Shown here: in pieces, positions 5,703 to 64,000 of the stretch
How the letters are laid out: each line of letters begins with the position of its first letter
How positions within the stretch are numbered: position 1 is the first letter of the stretch
Virus record (IMG/VR): IMGVR_UViG_3300020112_001004
Coordinates: 48,403-112,402 of that record
DNA length: 64,000 nt
Direction: 5' to 3' (one strand)
Source of the DNA: a virus
Taxonomy: Duplodnaviria; Caudoviricetes
The notes under the pieces: generated by a model
Told to the model about the DNA's origin: nothing
Databases searched by the model: none
Seen by the model: the letters and a program-made list of their open reading frames with translations, nothing else
Position numbers and translations under genes: made by a program

Positions 5703-5793
5703 AACGAGCTGATAATAATATAATATAAGGAGGAGTAATCCCCCTAGTACATACTTGCCTAAAGGTGGGTAAATAATTTAAGGGAGATTAATA

Positions 5794-6426: not shown

Positions 6427-6544
6427 TAGCCTACGGTGTCGATAGGTAACAATTTAAAATAAGTTGATAATAATATAATATAAGGAGGAGCAATCCTCCA
6501 GTACATATCTGCTTTTAGCAGATAATAATTCAAGGAGTGATTAT

Positions 6545-9059: not shown

Positions 9060-10508
9060 TTACCCTAGCTCTACAAGTGTATTTTCTTCTATTAGCCACT
9101 TACCATTAAAGCTTATAAGCTTAATGTTTTTATATCCAGCTTCTGCTATGGCTATATCTCTTAATAAAGTTCCTCCCTCTGTTTTTAATGATAGTGTTAT
9201 ATTAGGCGCAGTTGTGTGTAAAACAAGATTTATAACTCTAGAATCATCTATAGAAGGTACTACTATGGAGGTGTTAGCCCCTAGGCTGTCTACAAATTGA
9301 CTGCCCTCTCCAGATACACGCACCACATTATTCCTTATACTTAATTGTTTATTGTTAGGTTTATTTTTTAGAAGTTCCTCGTTTATACTAGCAACTATCA
9401 TATTACAGCCAGTAGGGTTTGGATTGTATCTTGAGTAAATAGGGTAGTTTCTTCCATTGTATACACGAGTTCTACCAGTTGGAGTTTTAGCGTCGGGGCT
9501 ATCGAAGTCATAGTCTCCTTCGCAAGGGAAAAACATAACAAGACAAGGTTTGTTTACGCATCTGCAAACATATGGACATGATTCGTCGGGATATATTGTA
9601 AATTTTTTATTTTGGGTATAATCAAACCACCAAACGTCTCCATCAATATTACCACGACTGCAATAGATATAGTTGGAAGCAAAATCATTGGATTTATCTG
9701 CTCCAAATTCGTTTATTAACGCCAATCTAGTGTTATTGTAGGTAGAATCAGACACTTTTATAACTTGGTATTGGTGTAACATACAATCTTTGAAAAGAAA
9801 AAGATATTTTAAATTACCCTCTTCGTTTAAATATATTGATTTTACACATGTCTTAATTTGTTCAGCGTCCCACCTGTTTATGATTACTCCATCTTTATAT
9901 AGCATCGGTCTAAGAATATTAAAATCTAAACTTAAAGTTTTTTTAACCCCTGTTATAGAATAATAGTTCACATTTAAAACAGTTCCAGTAAAACTGGTAT
10001 CGTCTATTTTTTCTATGAGATGCTTGTTTATATAATCACATTTTTTAGTAACAGTTATTTCCCTTATAGTAGAAAAACTTCCGTCTGCCTCTGTAACCAA
10101 AACGGTTGTAGAGTTTTTTTGGAAGAAAAGTATTTCTTCTTCTTCATCTATACCAATTAAGTCTCCTCCAGTAAAATTAATTTGCTGAGCTAAGTTGGTT
10201 TTTTGATTAATAACGATAGCCTTTCCAGTACTTAAAAAAAGAAAGATTTTATTTTTAAAAACAACAACACGTTTACTAAGTGGGTCTCCAGAACCAATGT
10301 TTTCAACATACCCGTCTTTTGCAAAAACAGTTAAAGGAAGGTTTGTTATTACACTAGTTTTGTAATTCACGTCTTTTTTCAAGGTTGGGGAACACGCCCC
10401 AGCCTTATTTGTCAAATCTGGGGTATTTTTTGAATCAAAAATTAAAGTATTCGTTTTTAATTTTAATTCTCCTAGTTCTTTTTTTACCTCTCTTATTTCT
10501 TGTTCCAT
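9060..10508 (-). CDS. Hypothetical protein, probably tail-associated
   Basis: Last gene of tail module; beta-rich; C-terminal segment resembles a segment of 10692..12653. Confidence 0.7.
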   Translation of the reverse strand: MEQEIREVKKELGELKLKTNTLIFDSKNTPDLTNKAGACSPTLKKDVNYKTSVITNLPLTVFAKDGYVENIGSGDPLSKRVVVFKNKIFLFLSTGKAIVINQKTNLAQQINFTGGDLIGIDEEEEILFFQKNSTTVLVTEADGSFSTIREITVTKKCDYINKHLIEKIDDTSFTGTVLNVNYYSITGVKKTLSLDFNILRPMLYKDGVIINRWDAEQIKTCVKSIYLNEEGNLKYLFLFKDCMLHQYQVIKVSDSTYNNTRLALINEFGADKSNDFASNYIYCSRGNIDGDVWWFDYTQNKKFTIYPDESCPYVCRCVNKPCLVMFFPCEGDYDFDSPDAKTPTGRTRVYNGRNYPIYSRYNPNPTGCNMIVASINEELLKNKPNNKQLSIRNNVVRVSGEGSQFVDSLGANTSIVVPSIDDSRVINLVLHTTAPNITLSLKTEGGTLLRDIAIAEAGYKNIKLISFNGKWLIEENTLVELG

Positions 10509-10705
10509 ACTCTTCCTCCTCTTATGTTGCCAAGGAAATATTGAACTACATAATATTCAACATTCTCCTCAGTAACTTTTTCCATTTCTTCCCCTCTTAA
10601 TACTATCACATGAGATGTTGCTTCAATTAAGGTGTCTCCAGTAAAAACAATTATTTCATTCATTTCTCTTAATATTTTTATTTTAATTATTTTATCTAAT
10701 GACAT
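10493..10705 (-). CDS. Small hypothetical protein
   Basis: Overlaps both neighbours (coupled arrangement). Confidence 0.6.
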   Translation of the reverse strand: MSLDKIIKIKILREMNEIIVFTGDTLIEATSHVIVLRGEEMEKVTEENVEYYVVQYFLGNIRGGRVWNKK

Positions 10706-12653
10706 TAGGTAACTTTACCTCCAATTCTTCAACATTGTTAATTTCTTCCCTATAGTGTAGGAAACGAATAGCACCATATCCTTCTTGAGTAGGTGTTAGA
10801 TTGGAATCTGGACAATCAGTCCTGTGTTTTAGAAAATCTATCAACTCGAAAACATTAGGTGTTTTTCCATATTTTTTCTTATATAAATTACTACCTATCA
10901 TTAAGCATCCTGTTACTGTTGGGGCTGAGCAACTTGTTCCAGAAAATTCGTCATAAGACCAGTGTTCACTATCTGGCATACCATTTCTTGTAAAAATTGA
11001 TGAGTAACCTAAAAAACACAAGCCCCTTGCTCCAGTAGAAACTGAATAGTAAACCATATCATCTTCGTTTTTAGAATATCCATAATAATACTCGCTTCCA
11101 TTGCCTCTTGGGTCATAGTATTCATTACTCCATATATCATGCCTGTCTGTTACTCCTCCTGCACCTATAATTCCATTGGCAAAATAAGGCATTCTAATAG
11201 CTGGAGCCCCGTATTCTGTTTCACAGTCCATAGATTCGTTTCCAGATGAGTTTACAAAGACTCCTCCGGCTGTAATGTATTTTCCAAAAGCAGACATAGA
11301 GGGTATATATTCCTCATGGTCAGAAAGATAGACCGTTCCCCCACCATAGCTCCTATTAACAAACATACAATTCTCTTTTAGCGCTAGTTCACACACTTTA
11401 GAAAACTCGTTGTTGGATGAACTGTCTACCCCTCCTATTTTAATCCATACAAATTCAGCTTTTGGAACTGCTCCATAAGTGCACTCTTTACCAGTCCCCA
11501 ACAGAATATGGCTAACTTGAAATCCATGATTATTTTTCCACTCTTTCATTGGTGTCATATCATTTTGCTTACTTATATCGTTGTTTATATTATAGGTTGC
11601 GACAAGTTTGTCATAATCAATATCTGGGAACTCGTCTCTTCTTGATATATCAGCAAACCCAGAGTCTGCTATGGCAACTCTTAAGCCTTCTCCATATTCG
11701 GCGCTTTCCCACACGTCTTGAACCTCATGATACCAAATATTACCGTCTAGGTGTTTATAAGCCTTTTCATCATAAATAAGTGGAGAACCAAAATACCAAT
11801 CTTTCTTAATAAATTCTAGTTCTATCTCTTTTCTAACATCTTGATTATCTAATACAACACTTCCCCAAGCTCCACCGTTTCTGTCTTTAAGATGTTTACA
11901 CATTCTTAGCAATGAATTTTTATTAGAAGAAAGAGGACAATTTAATAAATGCACTCTTTGTAAGTTATCACAGTCAACAAAAATTAAATCATTTAGTTGA
12001 GTTTCTGTTTTATTTACAAACTTAGTTAGTTGAGAACCTTTTACAATCATCCCTGTGATAGAAGCGTTAGTATTCTCAAATTCTCCTGTTATATCAGCCA
12101 CTTTAGAAATGGAGGCGTTTTCTATTTCATACACCCCGTTTTCTAAAGAGGATAGGTTTATGCTCTCTATAAATTCTAAGGATGGCTCTGCTTCGTCCTC
12201 CTCAGTAGAACCTTCTGGAGAATAATCTATTAATTCTGCGTTAAATTCTCCATTAATTTTAACTATTTTTAGAGCATGTTGTTTATCACAACCAAGCTCT
12301 ATTTCATCAGTAATATCTCCCTCTTTTAGGGTTACTACATTCCCTTTTTGACCTTTAATATATAGTTTTGCTTCCCAGTAGTCTTTTTCTATAGTTGGTA
12401 AATTAATTGTGATATTCTCAGTAATAACAAGTGATTGTAAGGAAGAAGTGGTTAAATTTACCTCTCCATTTTCTGGTGATAGAACTACTAGCCCTTCTTG
12501 AGAATCTGAAGATAATTCTACCCATTCAGCGCCATTCCAAAAAGATACTATATTTTTTTCTGTATCAAAATATTCATATCCTGTATCGTTTGCTGTTAAA
12601 TTATCTGGTCTATTTGCTGTATTACCTATATATCTATACTTGGTTTTTTTCAT
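10692..12653 (-). CDS. Subtilisin-like (S8) serine protease with tail-fibre-type N-terminal domain
   Basis: VAIADSG (Asp), NHG (His), SSGN, SGTSCSAP (Ser); N-terminus shared with 12771..15014. Confidence 0.85.
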   Translation of the reverse strand: MKKTKYRYIGNTANRPDNLTANDTGYEYFDTEKNIVSFWNGAEWVELSSDSQEGLVVLSPENGEVNLTTSSLQSLVITENITINLPTIEKDYWEAKLYIKGQKGNVVTLKEGDITDEIELGCDKQHALKIVKINGEFNAELIDYSPEGSTEEDEAEPSLEFIESINLSSLENGVYEIENASISKVADITGEFENTNASITGMIVKGSQLTKFVNKTETQLNDLIFVDCDNLQRVHLLNCPLSSNKNSLLRMCKHLKDRNGGAWGSVVLDNQDVRKEIELEFIKKDWYFGSPLIYDEKAYKHLDGNIWYHEVQDVWESAEYGEGLRVAIADSGFADISRRDEFPDIDYDKLVATYNINNDISKQNDMTPMKEWKNNHGFQVSHILLGTGKECTYGAVPKAEFVWIKIGGVDSSSNNEFSKVCELALKENCMFVNRSYGGGTVYLSDHEEYIPSMSAFGKYITAGGVFVNSSGNESMDCETEYGAPAIRMPYFANGIIGAGGVTDRHDIWSNEYYDPRGNGSEYYYGYSKNEDDMVYYSVSTGARGLCFLGYSSIFTRNGMPDSEHWSYDEFSGTSCSAPTVTGCLMIGSNLYKKKYGKTPNVFELIDFLKHRTDCPDSNLTPTQEGYGAIRFLHYREEINNVEELEVKLPNVIR

Positions 12654-43589: not shown

Positions 43590-46577
43590 TTATATTCTAG
43601 AATTTCTAGTTGGAGCTCTAAATTGTAATAATTTAGATATATCTTTCTTTTTGTCTGGTTTGTTTCTAATTTGTCCTTGGCGTACATTTGCCAAGTAAAA
43701 ACAAAGTAAAGCTAGTACAAAACAACGGTCATCGTGGTACTTACGTTTCTCTGGTGGATATTGGTAAGTATGACCTGTATTTGTTGGATTATCTACCCTT
43801 TGCATCATATAAGCTTCCTCTTTAGCTAAATCAATATTTTTTAATGCTAGTGCTTCTTCAAAAGCAAGGGTATGTTTATGGTAAACGACTTCTCCATCTT
43901 TCTCTTCTGGTATCATGATATAGTCTTTGGTTTCATCAAATTCACTAGTGAACTCAACTAATCCTAAATTTATCATTTCGATTGCTTTATCAAACATTTC
44001 TGTCCTATATTTTCTAGGGTCTACCACCCATAGTTTTTCTGATGCGTTCGGGAATCTATGAAGATATTCCTCACTATATTGAGGGTCTATTATTCCCTTA
44101 TGTTTAATTCCGTTGGCGTCTTCCCAATCTTCCATAAAGTAATCTGGTATAATAGTTCCTCCACCACCTGCTCCAGCATCTACCATAAGAATTTCCAAAT
44201 TTTCATAGTCTGCATAACCTTCACCGTTGTAGTCTAGTATCATTTTTTTAATATATGCTGTTTGCTCTGGTGAACGCATTGGTGTTTTATTCTTCAATCC
44301 TATATCTACTAAAGACACAAAGTTTTGTATTCTTAGTTTTGTGCCTAACACTTCGTCTTCTATTAATTCTGCTACTCCAACAATAGAGTTATCGTTTGTT
44401 CTAGCTGGGTCATATGCCATGATTATTCTTCTTTTCTCGTTGCCCTCATTGATTAACATTGGTGGTCTAATTGCGCTATTACGCATTATTACTGAACGCT
44501 TAAAAGGGTAATCATTACCACCTTCTGTAGTAAACTTGTTATAGTATTCTCGTCTCGCCTTTTCTGGGTTGGCTTTCATTGCATGGTCAACCTTATCTTG
44601 AGTAAGTAATGGCACTGCTAAATTTTTACCATGATTGGTCGCCCCTATAACCATATCACATGATATATCTGCGACAAAATAACTAGGGTTTCCCATTAGC
44701 ATCTCTTTAGCACAGTTCTTATACATACTGAAAAAATGTGTATCGGTCGAAGAGGCTGAAGAACAATACAATATTTGGTTAGGTAACATTTTTGGAATAG
44801 TTCCGTTGTCTATACCTTTACCCATTTTAAAACTGGCATTTTGAGTGCAAAACGCTTCAGTAACAAGGCAATATTCCTCGCTTAAAAACCCAGCCTCGTC
44901 GTAAACGTTTAGTTGAGAACGCTTCAATTTGTTATCTCACTAGCTTTTTATCTAGTGATTCTTATGATTGTATTTCTCATAAGTTCGGCATATCTTTTCA
45001 CCTTTGGCATTATCCATTAAGGGACGGGGACTCGTGGGCGTGTTATATTCTATTAAATAGTTTCAACGCCTATGCTCTGCACGTGTTACTAATATTACTT
45101 AATAACTTCCGTTCTGATTAGCATTTCAGCTTTCCAGATTTTTCCCCGTTTTAATTTAACTATACATTTCTGTATAGAGAGGCAATACGTTCTTCTAAAT
45201 TATATTCTTTATAGTAAAATAATTTTTTTTCATGTTTCCTGTCTAAATAAACTGAAGAATCTTTATAAATATATTCTAAAAACTCATGTGTGTTTTTTAA
45301 TCCACCTATTCTTAGTCTATAATGATTTTTTTCTTGACATATATAAGATTTTATTCCTGCTTCGTACAAGATTTTTCTCAGTTGACCAACAAAATCTATA
45401 CTACCACAAGCAAAGTCAGCTTTTATGACATCTTGTGTGCAATTTTTAGACCTAGTTTTATCATGCGTTAAACATCCATCTCCATCAAAAAATCCTCTTA
45501 TAAAATGTCTCATTAACTCTTTCGGAATGTTTGGTAAATCTATCACTTTAGATTTGTTTGGCATCACCCCTTGGTTTACTAGGTGTTCTACAAACTGCTT
45601 TTTATGAATTTTTAAACAACACGTTTCATAGTCTTTATTTGTTACTTCTAAATGTCTTACTCTTCTTGTAGTATTAAAATTCCCATGTATAGATTTATTA
45701 AATTTTTTAAGATGATTTTCATCAACTGCTGATAGTTCGATGCCTAGAGTTCCACCTTTGCCAACCGAATATTCAACATATCCATCAGCATAAATAAATC
45801 CTAGCCAATAAGCTTTCTCTTCATTGTTTATATTTTCAAAATAATCTAAATCACAGGTATATTTAGTGCTTTTAAGTCCAAGCTTGTTCGCCTTAGTATC
45901 TATTGCACTTTTTGTCCTTCCAATTAATTCCCCTAATTGTTTATTTGTCATTTCACCATAATATTTTTTTAATATATTTATTTCTTCTTCAGTCCATTGT
46001 GTACGCATTAAAAATTTCCTCCTTTTGATTTAATCTAATTAATACGATATTTTTTAAAATAATCTTTACCTCTTAAATTCGTCTCGTCTCCGGAGCAAGT
46101 GGTAACACTACTACCATTAAACAATTTGAACGTAAACCCACTTGGGGCATGAATAAAACCATTCCCGTTTACTGATGGTTGTACCTGTTGAATCATAAAA
46201 TCAGTCAAACCCACCATTGACTCTATTTGCCTTAAAGCCATCTTTTCCATCTTCAAAAATGTATCTTGTGATTGTTGTGCTGTAACAGAAAGAATATAAG
46301 AAGTAAAATTAGGGAACAGTAACATTTTAGTAAATGTAAAAGGTGCGATATAGAACGACTTACCCCCGTTTCTCGACATCGTTATACAACTAAATTGTTT
46401 ATTCCAACTTTCAGCAAAACAATATCTTTGATAATCAAGGAATTCTATCCCTATTACTTCTTCGGCAAAAAGAACTGGGTTCTTTCTTCCCCACTGTATT
46501 AAATTGCCATATTTATCGTAAGCTTCTTTTTTCTTTTGCGATAATTCTAAATCTGTTTTTCTAACATAAAAGTCCAT
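43590..46577 (-). CDS. terL: Terminase large subunit, spliced from 2 exons (614 aa)
   Basis: Exons 46577-46068 and 44924-43590 join as NLRG|KRSQLNVYDEAG; Walker A SRNGGKS, Walker B YDEAG, nuclease YDPAR..D and HDDR. Confidence 0.92.
44925..46067 (-). mobile_element. Group I intron in terL (1143 nt) with LAGLIDADG ORF in P1 loop
   Basis: 5' exon AGAGGU pairs with GCCUCU at 45178-45183; R GCAGAGCAUAG, S AAGAUAUGCC; ends AACAAAUUG. Confidence 0.9.
45160..46008 (-). CDS. LAGLIDADG homing endonuclease (double motif) with N-terminal HTH
   Basis: KAYWLGFIYADG and HFIRGFFDGDG; own RBS aggagg. Confidence 0.9.
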   Translation of the reverse strand: MRTQWTEEEINILKKYYGEMTNKQLGELIGRTKSAIDTKANKLGLKSTKYTCDLDYFENINNEEKAYWLGFIYADGYVEYSVGKGGTLGIELSAVDENHLKKFNKSIHGNFNTTRRVRHLEVTNKDYETCCLKIHKKQFVEHLVNQGVMPNKSKVIDLPNIPKELMRHFIRGFFDGDGCLTHDKTRSKNCTQDVIKADFACGSIDFVGQLRKILYEAGIKSYICQEKNHYRLRIGGLKNTHEFLEYIYKDSSVYLDRKHEKKLFYYKEYNLEERIASLYRNV

Positions 46578-53667: not shown

Positions 53668-54342
53668 TTAAATTATTTCGTCAGCTATTCCTAATTTAAC
53701 AGCAGTCTTAGCGTCTATCCACCAATCTATCTTCTTTTCTTGAATCTCTTGTAATCTTTCCTCTGTTACCTTGGTATTCTTTAGTATTAGTTCTTTTAAT
53801 TCTTCCCATAATTGTCTAGTAAATTCGACTTCTCTTTGCATATCTTCATAGGTGCCACCACAACCGGAACTTACTTGGTGAATTAATACTCTTGCATGTC
53901 TGCCAATTTTTCTATGACCTATTGAACCAGTTATAAATGATATACTACCACAGCTTATTGCGTAAGTGTGTGTTACTGTTTCTATAATATAGCCTTTTTC
54001 CTTAAGTTGTTCTACTTTGTCCCACATTTGAAAAGCGTCTAAAACACTTCCACCATAACTTCCAATCTCTAAAGTTATTTTCTCTGGTTTATATTTATCT
54101 GGTCTTAAACTTAATGACCTCTCTAGGTCGTCTAACTCTTCTATCTTCTCTAGTACACCTAAACACCAGTTGCATTGAATTCTGTCAAACTCGAAGTTAA
54201 ATTTAATAACTCTATTGTGGACTGCTTCTAATTCTTGCATTTGTAATACTTGTAACATATAAGCATCCGTTGGCTTTTGTACTCCTCCATTATTAAATTG
54301 TTCTCTTCCAAATCCTGTTTGATTAAAACTATTAATTAACAT
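53668..54342 (-). CDS. ClpP-like protease
   Basis: SYGGSV, AISCGS (catalytic Ser), LIHQ, DWWI.A..A..LGIADEI. Confidence 0.85.
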   Translation of the reverse strand: MLINSFNQTGFGREQFNNGGVQKPTDAYMLQVLQMQELEAVHNRVIKFNFEFDRIQCNWCLGVLEKIEELDDLERSLSLRPDKYKPEKITLEIGSYGGSVLDAFQMWDKVEQLKEKGYIIETVTHTYAISCGSISFITGSIGHRKIGRHARVLIHQVSSGCGGTYEDMQREVEFTRQLWEELKELILKNTKVTEERLQEIQEKKIDWWIDAKTAVKLGIADEII

Positions 54343-54492
54343 TAACAACACCCCTTATAGTTCAATTTTACCACATTCAAATATTTTTTTTACACCTAGT
54401 CAATATTTATCGTCATTTCGTTAAATATTTATTAATTTATCTTTCGTTGTTATATTATATTATTATCCAACTTGTCCAAATTGTTACCTCGT

Positions 54493-55953
54493 CTATAAGG
54501 TAATTTGCATGTTCTTTTTCGTTATAATTATCTTATTAGTTTTGTTCATTTTTCTCAATTCTTCTTCTGCTACTCTTTTAAGTTCTTCCTTAGCCGAAGA
54601 ATCACCATGGTGTAATACCACTGTGCAATTATCACTCATTCCCTTTATATAGTTTACAAGTGTTTTTTGTTGAGCGTGTCCAGAGAATGTATTATATCTT
54701 TTTATATCACATCTTCTTAATACTTTACTACCATTAACCTCTATAACTTCTTTTCCGTCTAGAATCTCTCTTCCTATTGTGCCACTTCCACAATATCCTA
54801 CAAAAGCTATTAGCGACCCTGTTTGCCCTAATAATCTCTCTGCCCATATTTGGCTTCTTCCTCCACTAATCATACCAGAGGAGGATAATACTAAACATGG
54901 TATCTTCTTTTGCATAAAAGCCACACTACTTTTATAGTCCCTTAAGAACTCAAAGTGACCCCATGAACACACTTCATTCCAATAGTCCAACTCTTCATCT
55001 TTAAGTATTTTTCTATATACTTCATTTATTTTATTCGCTAAAGTGCTATCAATCACTATAGTGGCATTAAAAGTTTTATCCCCTTTAAACCTGTCGTATA
55101 ATAAGCACATTAAATTTTGAGTTCTTCCTAAAGCGAAACTAGGGATTAACATATTTTTTCTGTCTTTAACCACATATTTTATTATAGTATTAAATAAATC
55201 TTCTTGTTCTTTTTTAACCTCTTCTTTTGTGTATGCTTGTTTATTTCCATAGGTGCTTTCTATCAATAATAAATCAGCCTTGCTTATAGGTTCTTGTTCA
55301 CCCACAAAGTAATTACTTGCTTTATTGCTCATATCCCCTAAGTCAGAGGTGTATACTATTTTTTTTACAATCCCACTTCTTTTCTTTATAAATAATTCTA
55401 ATTGAGTTGAAGCAATAAGATGACATGTATTAGTGAATCTAAAAGAAATTTTATCAGTTAATTTATGAATCTCATTGGTACTATAGGTATCTATTTTATC
55501 ATATACATTCCAAAAGTCTGGTTCTTTGTATAGATGTTTAACTCTTTTTCCTCTTCCGTTAAGGTACTCCACTGTTTTATCGTGAACATAACATCCATCT
55601 AACAACATTGGCTTACATATCTCTTTATTTTCTTCAGTCATTATAATTCTCACCTTATCATTGCATGATAGTGCTGGTAGGTTCATCGAATGGTCTGCGT
55701 GGAGATGAAGGTTGAAACAGTAATCAATGCTTTTTAATGGTATATTTTCAAGCAAATCTCTGTTGGCTCTGTAGTCATCAAATATATCTCCCTCGCCTTG
55801 TACCATTCCCAACTCTATTAGAACATTAGTCCTCGTGAAACCATCGTCATTTAATATAGATACTAAAGTAGCGCTTCCTGTTACAATTTCCGATTGTGCG
55901 CCTAGAAATGAAACCACTATCTCATCTTTTATTTTTTTCTTTTTACTCCCCAT
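54493..55953 (-). CDS. MBL-fold beta-CASP metallohydrolase (probable nuclease)
   Basis: VTGS, HLHADH, YTSD, ESTYG, IPSFALGRTQ, SSSGM..GGR, FSGHA. Confidence 0.88.
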   Translation of the reverse strand: MGSKKKKIKDEIVVSFLGAQSEIVTGSATLVSILNDDGFTRTNVLIELGMVQGEGDIFDDYRANRDLLENIPLKSIDYCFNLHLHADHSMNLPALSCNDKVRIIMTEENKEICKPMLLDGCYVHDKTVEYLNGRGKRVKHLYKEPDFWNVYDKIDTYSTNEIHKLTDKISFRFTNTCHLIASTQLELFIKKRSGIVKKIVYTSDLGDMSNKASNYFVGEQEPISKADLLLIESTYGNKQAYTKEEVKKEQEDLFNTIIKYVVKDRKNMLIPSFALGRTQNLMCLLYDRFKGDKTFNATIVIDSTLANKINEVYRKILKDEELDYWNEVCSWGHFEFLRDYKSSVAFMQKKIPCLVLSSSGMISGGRSQIWAERLLGQTGSLIAFVGYCGSGTIGREILDGKEVIEVNGSKVLRRCDIKRYNTFSGHAQQKTLVNYIKGMSDNCTVVLHHGDSSAKEELKRVAEEELRKMNKTNKIIITKKNMQITL

Positions 55954-56054
55954 AATTTACTCCCCAATCTATAATTTAGTATTTGTTTTGCACTAGTTTG
56001 TTTAACCTACTATTAGCGTCAACACTAATAGTTAAGGCTAAATTGGGCAACCCC

Positions 56055-56477
56055 TTATAATAACATCTCCAAATAAGCTTCTGGAAATTCTTCTCTATTA
56101 TCAGCCACATATTGCTTCATTATTTTATTTTCTACTTCCCATCTGAAGTGTTCCTTCCTTTGTAAAAACTTTTGTGCAGTATATTCTCCGTAATTAACAA
56201 GCATAAAATCAGTACCTATCTGTAACCAATGTATAGCTTCTTTAGTAACACTTTCACCAGAAGGAGTTTCTCCATAAAACTTATCAAAATCTTCTAGTTT
56301 TAAACAGTCAGTGTCATATATATATTCATTTTTTAGTAAATAATCTATTAAATTACGTTCAATCATATATCCAATCCAAACTATTTCAAATTCACTTTCA
56401 AATGCTTCATTAATTCCACCCGATGACTTTATCCAACTTGTTATTTTGTTCATATCAACGTCATATTTTACTCTCAT
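56055..56477 (-). CDS. Array paralog, subfamily C
   Basis: MRVKY..WLQIGTDF..EEFPEAYLEMLL. Confidence 0.85.
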   Translation of the reverse strand: MRVKYDVDMNKITSWIKSSGGINEAFESEFEIVWIGYMIERNLIDYLLKNEYIYDTDCLKLEDFDKFYGETPSGESVTKEAIHWLQIGTDFMLVNYGEYTAQKFLQRKEHFRWEVENKIMKQYVADNREEFPEAYLEMLL

Positions 56478-56540
56478 ACAACCACTCCTTTTCTTATATT
56501 ATATTATTGTCACTCCTATGTACCCAGAACAAAGTTCTGG

Positions 56541-56954
56541 TTATAGCAATAGCTCCAAATAAGCATCTGGGAACTCTTCTTTATTATCAATCACATATTG
56601 CCTTATTACTTTATTTTCTTTCCCCCATACGAACTCTTCCTTTTTTTGTAAAAACAGTATAATATAATCTCTGTAATTCGTAAGCATAAAATCTGTACCT
56701 ATTTGTAGCCATTGTGTGGCTTCTTTAGTGAGACCTCCTCTAGGAACAGCATTTCCATAAAATTTATCAAAACCTTCTAGTTTTAAATAGTCAGTGGTGT
56801 GTTCATTTTTTAGAAAATGGTCTATAAAACCATATTTAATTATATATCCAATCCAAACTATTTCAAATTCACTTTTAAATATTTCATTAACTCCACCAAA
56901 AGACTCTATCCAGCTTGTCGTTTTGTTCGTATCAATATCATATTTTATCCTCAT
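56541..56954 (-). CDS. Array paralog, subfamily C
   Basis: MRIKY..WLQIGTDF..EEFPDAYLELLL. Confidence 0.85.
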   Translation of the reverse strand: MRIKYDIDTNKTTSWIESFGGVNEIFKSEFEIVWIGYIIKYGFIDHFLKNEHTTDYLKLEGFDKFYGNAVPRGGLTKEATQWLQIGTDFMLTNYRDYIILFLQKKEEFVWGKENKVIRQYVIDNKEEFPDAYLELLL

Positions 56955-56972
56955 AAAATCACACCCCTCTAG

Positions 56973-57425
56973 TTACAACATTAAATCTAAATAAGCTTCT
57001 GGGAACTCTTCTTTATTATCAAACACATATTGCTTCATCACTTTATTTTCTTTATTCCATGTGAATCCTTCCTTTCTTTGTAAAAACGTTTGTATAGTGT
57101 ACTCTCTATAGTTAGTAAGCATAAAATCTGTACCTATTTGTAACCAATGTATGGCTTCTTTGGTGAGACTTCTAGTAGTAGGAATTTTTCCATAAAATTT
57201 ATTAAAATCTTTCAACTCTGGATAGTCAGTGACAAGTTCACATGCATAAGGTTCACATTCGTAATAAATTTCTTTAGATTTTAGAAAATAATCTATTAAA
57301 TTATATTTAATTATATATCCAATCCAAACTATTTCATATTCACTTCTAGATATTTTATTAACTCCACCCAAAGACTCTATCATACCTGTTATTTTGTTCA
57401 TATCAACTTCATATTTTACTCTCAT
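56973..57425 (-). CDS. Array paralog, subfamily C
   Basis: MRVKY..WLQIGTDF..EEFPEAYLDLML. Confidence 0.85.
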   Translation of the reverse strand: MRVKYEVDMNKITGMIESLGGVNKISRSEYEIVWIGYIIKYNLIDYFLKSKEIYYECEPYACELVTDYPELKDFNKFYGKIPTTRSLTKEAIHWLQIGTDFMLTNYREYTIQTFLQRKEGFTWNKENKVMKQYVFDNKEEFPEAYLDLML

Positions 57426-57441
57426 AAAACCACCCCTCTAG

Positions 57442-57858
57442 TTATAACATCATTTCCAAATAAGCATCTGGGAATTCATCCTTGTTGTCTATTATATATT
57501 CTTCTATAATGTTTTTTTCTGCAAGTGCACTGTTACCTAGATATCCCTCTTGCAAAGTTGCGAATAATTCTCCATATTTTTTTATATAAGATAAACAAAA
57601 ATCAGTTCCGATTTTTGTCCATTCTATAAACTCTTCGTCCTTTGACCCTGTAGTAAATCTCATGGATTTATTATGATATTGTCCTGCGTCTGGCACAGTG
57701 TCTGATAAATGTGCTATTGGTTCGATGGGTTCGATGGTAAAATCACCATATACAATAAGATATCCGATATAAGACATTCTATAATAATTAATTGCGTCAT
57801 CCTTGATGGATAAATCAATTTTTCTTTCTAAATTATTTAATGGATATTTGACTCTCAT
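57442..57858 (-). CDS. Array paralog, subfamily B
   Basis: MRVKYPL..WTKIGTDF..DEFPDAYLEMML. Confidence 0.85.
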   Translation of the reverse strand: MRVKYPLNNLERKIDLSIKDDAINYYRMSYIGYLIVYGDFTIEPIEPIAHLSDTVPDAGQYHNKSMRFTTGSKDEEFIEWTKIGTDFCLSYIKKYGELFATLQEGYLGNSALAEKNIIEEYIIDNKDEFPDAYLEMML

Positions 57859-57973
57859 AAAACCACTCCTTTTAGTTTATATTATATTATTATCACTCGT
57901 TTTTGGTTTGTTACTTTTATGTACCCAGAACAAAGGTTCTGGAATCTCTTCTTTAGAGTCCGTAACTCCAAAC

Positions 57974-58288
57974 TTATCTTTTCTTCTTTCTTTTTTTAAG
58001 CTTTTTGTATTTCATTTTAACGTTAATCTTATCATTTAGCCTTTGTAGTTTTTTAGTTTTGGGGTTAGTGTAATCTCTGGCTTCCCTGTCTATAGTGTAA
58101 ACCTCAATATCACCCAATCTTACTATGTCGGCTTCTTCTTCCTCCATTATTTCTATAGCTAAATCTAATATAACACTAAAATCCTTAATTACCTCCCTTA
58201 CACTTACCTTGGTTACTTCCATCCTCTCTGCTAATTTTGTAACCATATCTTCTCTTAATATTCTTTTTTTATCTTTGCTCTTTCCCAT
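57974..58288 (-). CDS. HU/IHF-like DNA-binding protein
   Basis: Helical N-terminus, VRLG, REAR..NPKT arm motif, Lys-rich tail. Confidence 0.72.
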   Translation of the reverse strand: MGKSKDKKRILREDMVTKLAERMEVTKVSVREVIKDFSVILDLAIEIMEEEEADIVRLGDIEVYTIDREARDYTNPKTKKLQRLNDKINVKMKYKKLKKRKKKR

Positions 58289-58486
58289 AGTTTCCTCCTT
58301 CTAGTCTCATTGAGAGACTTTTGGAACTATAGTTAGATTATGTTTTTTTTATTATATCATATTACCATAGGTGATTATAATTTCTATAACACCCAATATC
58401 TAACGTAATTACGTTAATTTTTATAGTTTTTCTTGTTGCTGTAAAAATATAAAAACCCATGTAAAAACATAGGTTTTGTTGGTGGC

Positions 58487-58894
58487 TTATAATATCAATT
58501 CTAAATAAGCATCCGGAAACTCGTCTTTGTTAGCAATTATATAATTTTTTACAATGTTTTCTTCTGTAAGTAAACCTTCACCAATACATTTACTTTGAAA
58601 AGTTTGGAATAATTCTCTATATTTTTTCATATAAAATAAACAAACATCAGTTCCAATTTTTATCCACTCTATGAATTCTTTATCTCTTGGCACTTCTTCA
58701 AGCCCCACGGCTTTAACCTCATATAATCCTATCTCTGGTGTAACGTCTGATAAACGTTTTAATGATTTATTGGTAAAATCACCGTGCATAATAAGATATC
58801 CGATATAAGACATTCTATAGTTTTTAACTGCTTCAATCTTGGTAAGGAAATCAATTTTTCTTTTTAAATTATTTAATGGGTATTCAACTCTCAT
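58487..58894 (-). CDS. Array paralog, subfamily B
   Basis: MRVEYPL..WIKIGTDV..DEFPDAYLELIL. Confidence 0.85.
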   Translation of the reverse strand: MRVEYPLNNLKRKIDFLTKIEAVKNYRMSYIGYLIMHGDFTNKSLKRLSDVTPEIGLYEVKAVGLEEVPRDKEFIEWIKIGTDVCLFYMKKYRELFQTFQSKCIGEGLLTEENIVKNYIIANKDEFPDAYLELIL

Positions 58895-58931
58895 ATAATC
58901 ACTCCTTTTTAATTTGTTACCTATTACTGGT

Positions 58932-59372
58932 TTATAACATTAAATCTAAATAAACTTCTGGGAACTCTTCTTTATTATCAATCACATATTGCCTAATCAT
59001 TTCATGTTCTTCTTCATGGTCACCGTCACCTTTCAATACCTTTGTGGTTACATCCTTTTTACAATTTGTAAGCATAAAATCTGCACCTATTTTTATCCAC
59101 TTAACACATTCCTTTCCAAGTGGGATATTCTCGGGTCTTTCTAAATAATACCCAAGCAAATCTTCTATCTCGTGCATAGTAGACCTATAAACAGAAACCC
59201 TCCCCCTACATAAATCCATAAGGATATCAAAAGAATGGTTTACTAAATTTTTGTCAATAATATATCCAAATATCACAACAGAGTAGTCATCTATCAATAA
59301 TTTATTTGTAGCATAAACATAATCTAAAAACTTAACCATTTTATCTTTATCAACTTCGTATTTAACTCTCAT
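58932..59372 (-). CDS. Array paralog, subfamily A
   Basis: Start MRVKY at 59372; WIKIGADF; EEFPEVYLDLML. Confidence 0.85.
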   Translation of the reverse strand: MRVKYEVDKDKMVKFLDYVYATNKLLIDDYSVVIFGYIIDKNLVNHSFDILMDLCRGRVSVYRSTMHEIEDLLGYYLERPENIPLGKECVKWIKIGADFMLTNCKKDVTTKVLKGDGDHEEEHEMIRQYVIDNKEEFPEVYLDLML

Positions 59373-59438
59373 ACAAACACCCCTTTTCTTCATATTATAT
59401 TATTATCACCATTTTTTAATTTGTTACCTGTTATTGGT

Positions 59439-59879
59439 TTATAGCACCAATTCTAAATACACATCTGGAAACTCCTCTTTGTTATCTATTATATATTCTC
59501 TAATTGCTTTATTTTCTTTTTTGTAAGCATTTTTATTCTTCAATACCCCTATTGGAATATATTTTTTACAATTTGTAAGCATAAAATCTATGCCTACTTT
59601 TACCCATCTAGTACTTTTATTTGTAAGAGGAACATCCAATGGTAGACCCAAATAGGATTTAGATAATTCCCCCACCACTGGTACAACAGGGTTTTTATGA
59701 TGAATCTTTCCTTTGCATAAATCCCTAAGTGCGTCAAAAGGGTAATTTGTCAAGTCACGGTCAATAATATATCCGAACACCACAACGAAGAACTCATCTA
59801 TGATTGGATTATTTGAGGCATAAACATAATTTAAAAACATAACCATTTTATCTTTATCAACTTCGTATTTAACTCTCAT
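59439..59879 (-). CDS. Array paralog, subfamily A
   Basis: MRVKYEVDKDKM..EEFPDVYLELVL. Confidence 0.85.
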   Translation of the reverse strand: MRVKYEVDKDKMVMFLNYVYASNNPIIDEFFVVVFGYIIDRDLTNYPFDALRDLCKGKIHHKNPVVPVVGELSKSYLGLPLDVPLTNKSTRWVKVGIDFMLTNCKKYIPIGVLKNKNAYKKENKAIREYIIDNKEEFPDVYLELVL

Positions 59880-59915
59880 GTAGTCACTCCTTTTAATTTG
59901 TTACCTATTATTAGT

Positions 59916-60362
59916 TTATAGTGGTAGTAGTAGTTCTAAATACATATCTGGAAATTCGTCTTTATTCTCTATAATATAGCCCTTAATCACTTCATTCTCT
60001 TCTTTATAAATAGTTTTCTTTCTCAATACTTCTATTAGTATATATTCTTTACAATTTGTAACTATAAAATCTACACCTATTTTTAGCCACCTAATACTTT
60101 TCTCTGGGAGAGGAGCTTCTGATGGTAAATCCAAACAGAACTTAACCAAGTCTTTCGTCGCAAGTGCAATAGGACTTTTATGGTGAATTTCTCCTTTACA
60201 TAAATCCCCAAGGTCATCAAAAGAATAATTTACTAAATTATAGTCAATAATATATCCAAACATCATAACAAAGTATTCATCTATGGGCGATTTATATGTG
60301 GTATAAAAATAATCTAAAAACTTACACATTTTATCTTTATTAACTTCGTATTCAATCCTCAT
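59916..60362 (-). CDS. Array paralog, subfamily A
   Basis: MRIEYEVNKDKM..DEFPDMYLELLLPL. Confidence 0.85.
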   Translation of the reverse strand: MRIEYEVNKDKMCKFLDYFYTTYKSPIDEYFVMMFGYIIDYNLVNYSFDDLGDLCKGEIHHKSPIALATKDLVKFCLDLPSEAPLPEKSIRWLKIGVDFIVTNCKEYILIEVLRKKTIYKEENEVIKGYIIENKDEFPDMYLELLLPL

Positions 60363-60427
60363 ACAAACACTCCTTTTCTTATATTATATTATTATCATTC
60401 ATTTTTAATTTGTTACCTATTAGTAGC

Positions 60428-60868
60428 TTATAACATTAATTCTAAATACATGTCTGGAAATTCATCTTTATTCTTTATAATATATTCTCTAATTGCTTTA
60501 TTTTCTTGATTGTAAAAAATTTTATTTTTCAGTATTTTTATTAGCATATATTCTTTACAATTTGTAAGTATAAAATCTACACCTATCTCTAGCCACCTAA
60601 TACTTTTCTCTGTAAGTGGAACATTTGACGGCAAATCCCAATAGAATTTAGTCAAATCCTCTATCACTGGTGCCATAGGGCTTTCATCATGGACGTCTCC
60701 TTCACATAAATCCGTAAGTACTTCAAAAGGATAGTTTAGTAAATTATTGTCAATAATATATCCAGATACCACAACAAAGAACTCGTCTATGGTTGGGTTA
60801 TTTGTGGCATAAAGATAATCTAAAAATTTATTCATTTTATCTTTATCAACTTCATATTCAACTCTCAT
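60428..60868 (-). CDS. Array paralog, subfamily A
   Basis: MRVEYEVDKDKM..DEFPDMYLELML. Confidence 0.85.
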   Translation of the reverse strand: MRVEYEVDKDKMNKFLDYLYATNNPTIDEFFVVVSGYIIDNNLLNYPFEVLTDLCEGDVHDESPMAPVIEDLTKFYWDLPSNVPLTEKSIRWLEIGVDFILTNCKEYMLIKILKNKIFYNQENKAIREYIIKNKDEFPDMYLELML

Positions 60869-60904
60869 GTAATCACTCCTTTTAATTTGTTACCTACTAT
60901 TAGT

Positions 60905-61345
60905 TTATAACATTAAATCTAAATATGCTTCTGGAAATTCTTCTTTGTTCTCTATAACATATTCTTTAATTATTTTATTTTCTTCTCTGTAAACATTTTT
61001 ATTCTTCAATGCTTCTATTACTATATATTCTTTACAATTTGCAAGTATAAAATCTACGCCTATTTTTAACCACCCAATACTTTTATCTGTAAGTGGAACA
61101 TTTAATGATAAATCAAAATAGAATTCAGTCAAATCTTCCACAGCCGATTCAATACGGCTTTTATAACGAACATCTCCCTTGGTTAAATCCTCAAGGACGC
61201 TAAAAGAATAATTTTGTAATTTATTACTAATAATATATCCAAGCACCACAAGGGAGTACCCATTTATGGAAGATTTATCTGTGGTATAAAGATAGTCTAA
61301 AAACTTAACCATTCTTTTTTTATTAACTTCATACTCAACCCTCAT
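60905..61345 (-). CDS. Array paralog, subfamily A
   Basis: MRVEYEVNKKRM..EEFPEAYLDLML. Confidence 0.85.
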   Translation of the reverse strand: MRVEYEVNKKRMVKFLDYLYTTDKSSINGYSLVVLGYIISNKLQNYSFSVLEDLTKGDVRYKSRIESAVEDLTEFYFDLSLNVPLTDKSIGWLKIGVDFILANCKEYIVIEALKNKNVYREENKIIKEYVIENKEEFPEAYLDLML

Positions 61346-61410
61346 GTAATCACTCCTTTTCTTATATTATATTATTATCACCATTTTTTAATTTGTTGCC
61401 TGTTAGTAGC

Positions 61411-61857
61411 TTATAGCGCCAATTCTAAATACATATCTGGGAACTCTTCTCCGTTGTTTATTATATATTCTCTAATTACTTTATTTTCTTCTTCATAAAG
61501 AATTGTTTTATTACCCCTTAATATTTCTATCAGTATATGCTCTTTACAATTTGTAAGCATAAAATCTACACCTATTTTTAACCACCTAATACTTTTATCC
61601 GTAAGTGGGGTATCTGAAGATAGCTCCCAATAGAATTTATCCAAATCTTCCACATAGAGCACAAGAGGACTTTTATCACCAATGTTTCCTTCACATAAAC
61701 CCCTAAGTATATCAAAGGGATAATTTACTAAATTATTATCAATAATATATCCAAACATCACAACGAGGAACTCGTCTATCAATAATTTATCTATAGTGTA
61801 AAAATAATCTAAAAACTTACACATTTTATCTTTGTCAACTTCGTATTCAACTCTCAT
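61411..61857 (-). CDS. Array paralog, subfamily A
   Basis: MRVEYEVDKDKM..EEFPDMYLELAL. Confidence 0.85.
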   Translation of the reverse strand: MRVEYEVDKDKMCKFLDYFYTIDKLLIDEFLVVMFGYIIDNNLVNYPFDILRGLCEGNIGDKSPLVLYVEDLDKFYWELSSDTPLTDKSIRWLKIGVDFMLTNCKEHILIEILRGNKTILYEEENKVIREYIINNGEEFPDMYLELAL

Positions 61858-61923
61858 GTAATCACTCCTTTTTCTTATATTATATTATTATCATTCATTT
61901 TTAATTTGTTACCTATTATTAGT

Positions 61924-62304
61924 TTATAACATTAAATCCAAATACATATCTGGGAACTCTTCCTTGTTGTCTATTATATACTGTCTACAAATTTTTGTCA
62001 CTGACGCATGTAGGTTTTTAATTTCAGCTCTCAGATAATATAAATCATTACTCAAATATTTTACAGAAAAATCCAATCCTATCTGTATATATAATGAATC
62101 ACCATAAGGAGCCTTAAGTTCACGATTTATACTTCCTGTAGAAATCTTCCCGTTTCTCGTTTTAATCTCATTGATGCTAGAAAGTGGCGCACACACCAAT
62201 ATTCCTACATACACCAAATCAAAAACACTAACTTGACCGAGACAAAACTCTTTAATTAAACTTGTTTTTTCTTCCAAATCTTCTAGAGGATATTTAACTC
62301 TCAT
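61924..62304 (-). CDS. Array paralog, divergent subfamily B-like
   Basis: MRVKYPL..YIQIGLDF..EEFPDMYLDLML. Confidence 0.85.
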   Translation of the reverse strand: MRVKYPLEDLEEKTSLIKEFCLGQVSVFDLVYVGILVCAPLSSINEIKTRNGKISTGSINRELKAPYGDSLYIQIGLDFSVKYLSNDLYYLRAEIKNLHASVTKICRQYIIDNKEEFPDMYLDLML

Positions 62305-62370
62305 GTAATCACTCCTTTTTCTTATATTATATTATTATCATTCATTTTTAATTTGTTGCCTATTATTAGC

Positions 62371-62808
62371 TTATAACATTAATTCTAAATACATATCTGG
62401 AAATTCATCTTTATTCTTTATAATATATTCTTTAATTACTTTATTTTCTTGCTTAAAAGCATTTTTATTTTTCAATACTTCTGTTGAAATATATTCTTTA
62501 TAGCTTATGAGCATAAAATCTATACCTATTTTTAGCCACATAATAGCTTTGTTTGTAAGTGGAGCCTTCAATGGTATCTGCCAATAGGATTTAGCCAAAT
62601 CTTCCACTTCGGACATAATAGGACTTTTAAAATCGACATATCCTCGGGTTAAACATTTAAGGACTTCAAAAGAATAATCCAGTAAATTATTGTCAATAAT
62701 ATATCCAAGCACTACAAGGGTATACTCGTCTATGGGCGATTTATCTGTATAAAGGTAATCTAAAAACTTAGCCATTTTATCTTTATCAACTTCGTATTTA
62801 ACTCTCAT
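62371..62808 (-). CDS. Array paralog, subfamily A (first in transcription order)
   Basis: MRVKYEVDKDKM..WLKIGIDF..DEFPDMYLELML. Confidence 0.85.
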   Translation of the reverse strand: MRVKYEVDKDKMAKFLDYLYTDKSPIDEYTLVVLGYIIDNNLLDYSFEVLKCLTRGYVDFKSPIMSEVEDLAKSYWQIPLKAPLTNKAIMWLKIGIDFMLISYKEYISTEVLKNKNAFKQENKVIKEYIIKNKDEFPDMYLELML

Positions 62809-63604
62809 GTAATCACTCCTTTTAATTTTAGGTATTTTATCTATATTATATTATTATCTTTAGTGGCAAAATTGTTACCTTTTTTACTGTAGGGTATTCC
62901 TTTATTTTCTAGTTTTCCAGAGAAATCTACCATAAATATTTTTCTGGGTGAATTCCATAGAAATGTGAGTAACGTAAATACGTTGTTTTTTAAGGGTATA
63001 AGTCCTTTAGAATTAAAGTTTTTAATTGGGGATTGAAAGTGATAAACTTTTTATTTAAACACAAACTACAGAGGATTTTAAATGTTTTTTCGTTAATTCC
63101 CTTTATTTATTATATTTCATATTAACTTTTAGGGGTTTTTTGATGTTTTTATGCAATATTTAACGTTTTTTCGTTAGTTTTTCATGGTTTTTCATAGAAA
63201 ATAATTAGTGGAGTGGAGGGGCTTTATGGGGTATTTTTTGGGGTAGGAGGGATTTTTTAATGTTTTTGCGAGGATTTTTGGGTGCTATATTAAAGGGGTG
63301 ATAGTTATTAGGGGGTTATGATTCAAGGAAAGAGATTTAGGATTATTATAAAAAATAGTTTTTATGGGTGTTAGGGGTAGAAAAAGAAAGGGGTTTTAGA
63401 GTGTTTTCGTAGGAGGGGTATCTAGATTTAATATTTTTAAGGGGATTAATAAGTGATAGAAAAGGGAAATAGGAGGGGAATGGAGGGGATTTATGGGGTT
63501 GGGAATGGGATTATTACTAGGGTGGGAATTGGGGGAAATGGGAATGGGTTGGAAAAGGGGTGGAAAATGATTGGGATGTTGATGGAATAAGGGGTTTGGG
63601 TAGA

Positions 63605-63688
63605 TGATACACGTGGGTAAGTTGGTTAATATGATACACGTGGGTAAGTTTATGTGGGGTTGATGAATGTGATACACGTGGGTAAGTT
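63605..63688 (+). repeat. Three exact 19-bp direct repeats TGATACACGTGGGTAAGTT
   Basis: Copies at 63605, 63632 and 63670 in non-coding DNA. Confidence 0.9.
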
Positions 63689-64000
63689 TATTGATGATTG
63701 TAGGAATTGTAGAAAATTGTAGGGAAATGTTGTGGTATTGAATAGACTTGGCTATTTATAATGTAGGGAAATCAACCCCCTCCCTCGACAAGAAACGACG
63801 TAAAAACCCACGCCCCCACCTTGACTATATGAAATAGTTGTTTCTTATTGTCAAAACTCGAAAAAATTTCTGTTTTTGTCGACGGCGATAGGAATTTTTT
63901 TCACCCTACCCACTTCAATGCACCTTATACCCTTTTATTACTAACCACCCTATCGCCTATCATTATTCCTTTTTATATTACAAATTCCCTTACTACATAC

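Follow-up and report, generated by a model that had tools for sequence, protein, structure and literature searches.

Early or host-takeover gene blocks are known from several phages, including the host-takeover module of SPO1, the pre-early region of T5, and the paralog arrays of Rak2-like jumbo phages. Two other described systems are comparable in part to the array described below: the internal proteins IPI-IPIII of T4, which share a capsid-targeting sequence and are thought to counter host defenses; and the terminal multigene families ("genomic accordions") of poxviruses, in which tandem expansion and divergence occur near the genome ends and copy content varies by strain. No part of a large phage genome is less well understood than arrays of this class, which are likely to supply new proteins for host manipulation or anti-defense. 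Here, an array of 13 paralogous genes was analyzed on a 64,000-nucleotide (nt) stretch of viral DNA (referred to as the window) that corresponds to the rightmost 64 kb of a linear 112,402-bp record, IMG/VR IMGVR_UViG_3300020112_001004; the completeness of this record is estimated at 76%, and it does not fix the genome ends. The array is interpreted as encoding a family of small proteins that is specific to this lineage and has expanded in tandem, and whose members are mostly mildly acidic and predicted to be all-helical. The findings fit an old, lineage-specific, and selectively maintained repertoire that has a constant framework and variable surfaces and is transcribed with the non-structural genes.

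The array lies on the minus strand at positions 56055-62808 and consists of 13 co-oriented paralogous open reading frames (ORFs) of 126-150 amino acids (aa) with zero internal stops, ending 1.2 kb short of the contig end. An earlier note on this DNA had described 13 co-oriented genes of this size, none of them disrupted, and the ORF listing agrees at the exact coordinates. The note had also recognized three subfamilies of seven A, three B, and three C genes. Pairwise identity recovered the seven A genes (49-68%) and a trio, C (66-69%), but the remainder was found to be a pair, B (58%), and a singleton, g62304, which shares 23-30% identity with each other copy. Two further points amend the original description: (i) an HU-like gene (PF00216) breaks the array and, with a terminator-like hairpin, divides it into blocks of nine and four genes; and (ii) the family extends beyond the array, as seven further members were found on the plus strand in the other contig arm. 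Adding these (at least seven) to the 13 array copies, the family has at least 20 members in the recovered genome, all intact, and occupies about 9 kb of the 112 kb recovered.

All 13 array proteins were found to start with MR(V/I)(K/E)Y and to end with N(K/R/G)(E/D)EFP(D/E)xYL(E/D)(L/M)xL, as had been proposed; g60362 adds PL after this ending, and the ribosome-binding site (RBS) of g59372 fits the MRVKY start and not its longer alternative ORF start. Fourteen columns are invariant in the family alignment (A1): M1, R2, Y5, G36, G88, D90, Y123, N127, E130, F131, P132, Y135, L136, and L140. The C-terminal motif [FY]P[DE]xYL[DE] occurs 20 times across the 112-kb contig, every time at an ORF end, and a looser version returned just 19 matches in a six-frame search of the contig. 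The motif is thus essentially restricted to ORF ends contig-wide, and a chance pattern is excluded. The internal motifs GY(I/L/M)I and W..IG.DF are likewise present, in weakened form in two copies, g62304 (GILV, YIQIGLDF) and g58894 (GTDV). At the nucleotide level, identity between subfamilies was 0.65 in the first 12 codons, 0.61 in an internal island (codons 97-112), and 0.71 in the last 22 codons, compared with about 0.40 in the variable stretches, which agrees with the alternation of conserved DNA blocks and variable sequence reported before. The isoelectric points (pI) of the acidic copies range from 4.4 to 5.9, and the idea that the proteins mimic DNA was rejected because these values are not extreme. 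The sliding-clamp motif, which we take to be QLxLxL, may offer a lead for the YLELML endings; these differ from it at the first residue, and the segment is predicted to be helical and ordered.

Divergence by region was determined from Nei-Gojobori counts. The proportion of synonymous differences (pS) at the constant C-terminal end was 0.50 within subfamily A and 0.70-0.80 between subfamilies, while the corresponding values for the core were 0.44 and 0.72-0.82. Third-codon identity was similarly 0.61 at the C-terminal end, 0.68 at the N-terminal end, and 0.64 in the core of subfamily A. Because the synonymous sites of the ends are as diverged as those of the core, it is protein selection and not DNA homogenization that keeps the ends constant. 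Consistent with this finding, the proportion of nonsynonymous differences (pN) at the constant C-terminal end was 0.13-0.21, with a ratio of nonsynonymous to synonymous substitution rates (dN/dS) of 0.06-0.25 at saturated pS. The variable parts had dN/dS values of 0.6-0.8, and values above 1 were seen in some short windows where sites are few. The N-terminal strand, helices H2 and H5, and the C-terminal helix-turn-helix are under strong purifying selection on the protein. The copies are old, with a synonymous divergence (dS) of 0.4-0.8 within a subfamily. When shared tracts within the array were assessed by a GENECONV-style permutation test, none reached significance (global p > 0.3 in subfamily A and 0.042 in C), and gene conversion inside the array was rejected on these values. 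The "constant DNA block" thus combines two parts, codons constrained at the protein level and a regulatory spacer under a constraint of its own, and is not a recently homogenized recombination cassette. The earlier note had viewed the repertoire as shuffled by recombination. What stands of that proposal is that family members have recombined with each other in the lineage (P0017, below); this is not what maintains the constant blocks, as the synonymous sites of the ends are not homogenized and significant conversion tracts were not detected. Two programmed systems were also rejected. A diversity-generating retroelement (DGR) was set aside because no reverse transcriptase (RVT_1) matched in the 112-kb record, outside which about 24% of the genome lies, and because differences between the copies include indels and involve every base type. 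Shufflon-type invertible cassettes were set aside because the junction repeats are all direct and because neither a serine recombinase/resolvase nor a tyrosine recombinase turned up in the recovered 112 kb.

Structures of two subfamilies were modeled with AlphaFold2. The model of g60868 (A-type, based on a 32-sequence alignment) is an 8-helix domain with a predicted local distance difference test (pLDDT) score of 89.3 and a predicted template modeling (pTM) score of 0.87, and that of g57858 (B-type) has the same helix order (pLDDT 80.4, pTM 0.80). Both constant ends were modeled as ordered, with block-mean pLDDT values of about 88-96 at the C-terminal end and 89-92 at the N-terminal end; the variable middle was the least confident part (pLDDT 58-65 in the B model). 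The models point to one compact 8-helix domain that includes both constant ends in the two subfamilies. Mean conservation was highest for the N-terminal strand (0.80) and H8 (0.78), followed by H5 (0.66) and by H2 and H7 (0.60), and was lowest for H1, H3, H4, and H6 (0.43-0.48), which evolve fast and bear indels. The motifs map onto this order, with GYII in H2, W..IG.DF in H5, and Y.I.NK[ED]EFP[DE].YL[ED]L.L forming the C-terminal helix-turn-helix. The combination of a constant scaffold with a variable part that had been suggested from sequence is therefore retained: conservation and confident modeling coincide in the N-terminal strand, H2, H5, and H7-H8, while H1, H3, H4, and H6 vary. The companion suggestion, that the constant end is a loose targeting peptide or a C-terminal degron, is not supported by ends predicted to be ordered (pLDDT 88-96); a loose tag or degron is unlikely because both constant ends are ordered in the models. 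An ssrA-like degron, for which an exposed disordered tail is expected, was rejected, as in the two subfamilies helix H8 is predicted to take up the last 8 residues (pLDDT 88-96).

The family was next examined for relatives and for variation in its repertoire. Twenty-four proteins matched it among 5.8 billion clusters, 11 of which were from other short Logan or ENA contigs, and an exhaustive hmmsearch of 1.84 billion representatives returned 10 cluster representatives. Two external proteins, P0003 and P0011, are 96-97% orthologs of single window copies (g60868 and g56477, respectively), and many other external members have 67-84% identity to their best local copy, which is a paralog-level distance here. 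Because 96-97% orthologs coexist with members at 67-84%, the paralogs are older than the phage split and the relatives hold members absent from this genome. The array content is not invariant among relatives; the repertoire differs. The external protein P0017 was found to be a two-parent mosaic, its N-terminal part matching P0013 at 89 of 91 residues and its C-terminal part matching P0014 at 46 of 47, whereas the parents agree with each other at only 62/91 and 27/47 of these positions. A single breakpoint fits 47 of 48 informative sites and is located at the internal island GTDFML (WLQIGTDFML), not at the gene ends. At least one natural recombinant between family members, P0017, therefore exists in the lineage. 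The phylogeny of the family was mostly unresolved.

Contigs of relatives from three independent DNA studies contain the cores as isolated pieces of 200-620 bp whose ends lie at junctions. Several metagenome contigs join junction to junction, with spacer-to-spacer joints that skip 483, 992, and about 2,964 nt. Contig depth was about 10-fold higher on the spacers and low over the cores of g59372, g61345, and g62808, a measure that cannot rank genes. The joints and low-depth cores suggest that content differs in relatives and were not counted as proof of deletions; the joints are taken as suggestive because the shorter side of most of them (20-61 nt) falls in near-identical spacers or conserved C-terminal ends. 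Metatranscriptome contigs (run X19) over 56082-58690 give just a hint of expression, as DNA carry-over is possible. No relative was detected by (i) megablast and tblastn of the array against 50,697 phage records; (ii) scans of viral contigs with profile A1, P0028, P0033, and the beta-CASP neighbor; or (iii) one scan of genome contigs and two of metagenome contigs.

The family was not matched to any named protein family, in agreement with the earlier note, which recognized none. Profiles of Pfam, PHROGs, NCBIfam, and PADLOC gave no match, the best E-values (0.013 or higher) falling short of the cut-offs and being scattered over unrelated families. A sequence profile search of PDB reached a best E-value of 0.38, a broader profile (A3) reached no named protein, and no longer, fused forms of the domain were found, the latter being weak evidence. 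Foldseek with the AlphaFold2 models, a check of the kind that had been recommended, returned nothing from PDB or BFVD at E < 0.5, and the best match in the ESM Atlas (0.88) was to unnamed clusters. When 48,161 chains were compared by VIA-align, CID/VHS/ENTH domains were the top architecture for both models at Z 3.2-5.5 (best Z 5.5 for model B, with a root mean square deviation of 2.6 over 76 residues, and 4.3 for model A), values that are not decisive according to the guidance for helical proteins (Z < ~8-13). No account of a comparable family was found in the literature. Overall, the family is new and its fold possibly new, while arrays of small, diverged early paralogs are already a known type of feature in large phages.

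The spacers between the genes were analyzed as the second component of the conserved blocks. Their pairwise identity is 88%, and a recount agreed that spacers 61858-61923 and 62305-62370 differ at 2 nt. In the long A-type spacers the stop codon is followed by a post-stop element CTAATAATAGGTAACAAATTAAAA, a box, and the RBS AAGGAGTG. The box (TGATAATAATATAATATAAG) sits in a 29-30-nt segment of five of the eight A-type spacers, and the short A-type spacers equal a long spacer from which this entire segment is cleanly absent; the genes are therefore single or paired behind each box. The intergenic spacers of the C-type genes are just 16-18 nt. The post-stop element was detected at eight sites (window 58907-62369), carries stop codons in several frames, and is retained in the short spacers that have no box; it is confined to the array, except that the left-arm member at 11320 has part of it upstream. 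The "promoter element" that the earlier note had placed in the spacers is not specific to the array: it is an 18-nt invariant box, GATAATAATATAATATA, with about 34 copies in the contig, all co-oriented with genes and restricted to the two non-structural arms, with zero copies in the ~45-kb structural module; the box is thus a mark of all the non-structural genes of this phage. The box holds a perfect TATAAT with no -35 partner at the right distance. Host sigma-A, the phage polymerase, and a repressor are candidates for its reader. An Rfam search over 55900-64000 gave no match.

Homologies of two proteins place the phage. Its portal protein is 27-33% identical to portals of Brevibacillus phage Sundance and of Staphylococcus SPbeta-like, Mammaliicoccus, and Bacillus phages, and a 989-aa left-arm protein with a DYDSD motif (contig 5554-8523, L011) is homologous to polymerase-like proteins of Clostridium phage c-st and of Enterocloster, Thomasclavelia, and Bacillus phages. 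Because of these portal and polymerase homologies, the phage is assigned to the distant SPbeta-like siphoviruses of the animal gut, probably with a clostridial host. Homologs of the 989-aa protein are annotated as RNA-dependent RNA polymerase, and the protein is read as belonging to the YonO type (PMC5467207). Downstream of the array and on the same strand are genes for a beta-CASP RNase, ClpP, an SbcD-like nuclease, a 5'-nucleotidase, a DNA methylase, a guanylate kinase, and an amidase, and beyond these lie the structural genes. The beta-CASP RNase and ClpP pair (window 53668-55953) is kept in a distant 176-kb gut phage (MT835469), which has no family member upstream of the pair. No other head protease was recognizable near the portal and capsid genes, and the ClpP may double as a head maturation protease. 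A LAGLIDADG homing-endonuclease ORF was detected at window 45160-46008, between the amidase and the head genes. The left-arm family members have different bodies and the same C-terminal ending as the array copies, and they include types that share just the last ~40 aa. Two HU-like genes, 24% identical, are present, one per arm and both among family members; the left-arm copy (contig 10490-10813) adjoins a MazF-like gene. Between the array and the contig end is about 1.2 kb of non-coding DNA (62809-64000) that is C-rich on the minus strand, where the guanine-cytosine (GC) skew flips. It has three direct copies of ATGATACACGTGGGTAAGTT (CACGTG core) at 63591-63695 as well as G-rich repeats, and it could be an origin, operator, or attachment region.

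Table. Features of the paralog array and of related elements (window coordinates unless marked as contig).
Feature	Coordinates	Strand	Remarks
Paralog 1, g62808	62371..62808	-	Subfamily A, 145 aa; opens block 1
Paralog 2, g62304	61924..62304	-	Singleton type, 126 aa; orthologs in relatives P0022, P0024
Paralog 3, g61857	61411..61857	-	Subfamily A, 148 aa
Paralog 4, g61345	60905..61345	-	Subfamily A, 146 aa
Paralog 5, g60868	60428..60868	-	Subfamily A, 146 aa; AlphaFold2 model m55a81c166bfc; P0003 is a 96% ortholog
Paralog 6, g60362	59916..60362	-	Subfamily A, 148 aa; C-terminus longer by 2 residues (PL)
Paralog 7, g59879	59439..59879	-	Subfamily A, 146 aa; pI 8.7, sole basic copy
Paralog 8, g59372	58932..59372	-	Subfamily A, 146 aa counted from MRVKY; longest ORF starts 7 codons upstream
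Paralog 9, g58894	58487..58894	-	Subfamily B, 135 aa; closes block 1
Terminator-like hairpin and T run	58452..58477	-	3' of block 1
Sigma-70-like promoter of HU-like gene	58402-58374	-	
HU/IHF-like DNA-binding protein gene	57974..58288	-	PF00216, E 3e-7; inside array
Hairpin CCAGAAC..GTTCTGG, then G and TACATA	57918..57942	-	Upstream of g57858
Paralog 10, g57858	57442..57858	-	Subfamily B, 138 aa; AlphaFold2 model m0c927ceac542; opens block 2
Paralog 11, g57425	56973..57425	-	Subfamily C, 150 aa; upstream spacer 16 nt
Paralog 12, g56954	56541..56954	-	Subfamily C, 137 aa; upstream spacer 18 nt
Second hairpin and TACATA element	56517..56540	-	Upstream of g56477
Paralog 13, g56477	56055..56477	-	Subfamily C, 140 aa; P0011 is a 97% ortholog
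A-type spacers (eight)	58895..62370	-	Span of all eight
Long A-type spacers (five)	62305-62370, 61858-61923, 61346-61410, 60363-60427, 59373-59438	-	65-66 nt
Short A-type spacers (three)	60869-60904, 59880-59915, 58895-58931	-	36-37 nt
Box, (T/A)GATAATAATATAATATAA(G/A)	within 56493..62859	-	18-20 nt; 8 array copies
Array box starts (low coordinates)	56493, 57876, 59389, 60378, 61361, 61874, 62321, 62840	-	
Further box copies	2095, 5710, 6465	+	
Further box copies	50781, 51738, 54449	-	
Left-arm family members (seven)	contig 1737, 2195, 4988, 8600, 9063, 11320, 47081	+	Different bodies, same C-terminal ending

The reading that we favor, with confidence just short of an even balance, is that the family consists of small helical binder or adaptor proteins aimed mainly at host proteins. 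The proteins would be made early or mid infection, or on induction, and would act stoichiometrically. Their conserved ends may fold together as a constant module that is either a pure fold scaffold or docks on one shared partner; such a partner is hinted at because the charged residues of the C-terminal motif are conserved. The variable helices would confer a different target on each copy, most plausibly host defense or takeover proteins. The array could have expanded through duplication or through unequal crossing-over at the repeated junctions and then have diverged over a long period, and it would not be upheld by ongoing concerted shuffling. Several points weigh against this reading: (i) no tie to defense systems was found, as PADLOC returned nothing; (ii) the dN/dS of the variable parts is mostly below 1, which does not demonstrate diversifying selection; (iii) the signs of expression are promoter-like boxes and a few metatranscriptome contigs that may reflect DNA carry-over; (iv) the packing of the two ends together is predicted from pLDDT and secondary structure; and (v) the contig is linear and about 76% complete. 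A more specific and improbable proposal is that all 20-plus members dock on one hub (a Clp protease/unfoldase or an RNA polymerase) through a folded plug made up of the conserved, charged C-terminal helix-turn-helix and the N-terminal strand, while the hypervariable helices capture different host proteins. If true, the family would be a phage-encoded modular targeting-adaptor system that neutralizes many host defenses with one effector machine. The modular split into constant and variable parts makes the family a tractable test case for the way in which phages build binder repertoires, although an uncultured host restricts experiments for now.

Other explanations were weighed against host-directed binding. 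The conserved C-terminal module could instead dock on a hub of the phage itself (the YonO-type RNA polymerase, orphan MazF RNases, the HU-like proteins, or the beta-CASP RNase), with the variable part tuning or redirecting this hub, such that the family would regulate phage gene expression or RNA processing and not attack the host. The C-terminal motif keeps six polar or charged positions across subfamilies that are otherwise 23-38% identical, as well as in left-arm types related only through the last ~40 aa, and members adjoin an HU-like gene in both arms and also the MazF and RNA polymerase genes in the left arm. However, 20-plus regulators for a single hub would be unusual, and a distant relative that has the RNA polymerase homolog and the beta-CASP/ClpP pair is without the family. 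This explanation is considered unlikely.

It is very unlikely that the proteins are capsid-targeted cargo like the T4 internal proteins, which would be directed to the prohead by the constant end, trimmed by the head protease, and injected with the DNA. The array is two genes upstream of the ClpP-family protease, which belongs to the head maturation protease class of PHROGs and is the sole recognizable head protease candidate beside the portal and capsid genes, and the MRVKY N-terminus is highly conserved. A T4-type leader, however, is expected to be short, cleavable, and N-terminal, whereas MRVKY is modeled as an ordered part of the domain (pLDDT 89-92), as is the other end (pLDDT ~90 for both). 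In addition, the array bears the non-structural box and is about 12 kb from the portal gene, and the ClpP and beta-CASP pair is kept in the relative without the family. Equally doubtful is a role as protease adaptors or degron-tagged proteins, in which a Clp unfoldase or the phage ClpP would recognize the hydrophobic YLELML end, and the paralogs would then be short-lived or would bring bound targets to degradation. The nearby phage ClpP gene appears catalytically plausible, and the hydrophobic extreme C-terminus is strictly at the ORF end in all 20 members; nonetheless, an ordered helix (pLDDT 88-96) and not an exposed tail is predicted for the last 8 residues, and ClpP is present in the relative that does not have the family.

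There is little probability that the array is a set of immunity proteins that neutralize polymorphic toxins or bacteriocins to the benefit of the lysogen, comparable to the tandem arrays of small helical immunity proteins at toxin loci. The paralogs are tandem, diverged, small, and helical, SPbeta-type prophages carry toxin and immunity genes, and a weak structural match to the SPN immunity factor 3qb2 was observed (Z 3.4-4.2). This score is far below significance, however, and no Pfam immunity family matched and no toxin gene is adjacent, the neighbors being the HU-like, beta-CASP RNase, ClpP, and nuclease genes; the array genes also share their box with replication and nucleotide-metabolism genes. 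Programmed cassette shuffling, in which the junction blocks would be active shufflon-like or DGR-like recombination sites, is extremely improbable, for although the junctions of 110-170 nt are repeated 8-12 times in direct orientation, are linked to each other in metagenome contigs, and have a mosaic (P0017) to show in the lineage, the recovered 112 kb has no reverse transcriptase or serine or tyrosine recombinase, the repeats are direct and not inverted, the synonymous sites of the coding ends are not homogenized and significant conversion tracts are absent, the paralogs have stable orthologs in relatives, and most joints rest on 20-60 nt in near-identical spacers.

With host-directed binders or adaptors as the favored reading, the locus can be set beside the known systems. 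At the level of structure, the peptide-binding superhelices of CID/VHS/ENTH domains (Rtt103 8yf5_E, p15RS 4nac_A, Pcf11 1sz9_A, tepsin 5wfb_B, and GGA2 1mhq_B) share the size (~140 aa) and the count of eight helices and would fit a peptide- or protein-binding role; the likeness, however, amounts to Z 3.2-5.5 over ~75 residues at 4-14% sequence identity, which is below a meaningful level, and Foldseek returned no match. The poxvirus families share tandem expansion near the genome ends and host-interaction genes, but those are eukaryotic viruses with unrelated proteins, and the copies here are old (dS 0.4-0.8) and have orthologs, unlike a recent amplification. Like IPI-IPIII of T4, the family consists of diverged paralogs with a constant terminal segment; the T4 proteins differ in having a short cleaved N-terminal leader and in being encoded among head-function genes, whereas here both ends are ordered in the models and the neighbors are non-structural genes. 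The SPO1, T5, and Rak2-like blocks have in common with this locus many small, fast-evolving, co-oriented genes near a genome or contig end, a promoter-like element per gene or pair, and content that varies between relatives. In this respect, the array has 8 copies of the non-structural box and ends 1.2 kb from the end of a contig that is linear and about 76% complete. It differs from those blocks in that it is composed of one family, both ends of its proteins are constant, and it is carried by a temperate-type SPbeta-like siphovirus.

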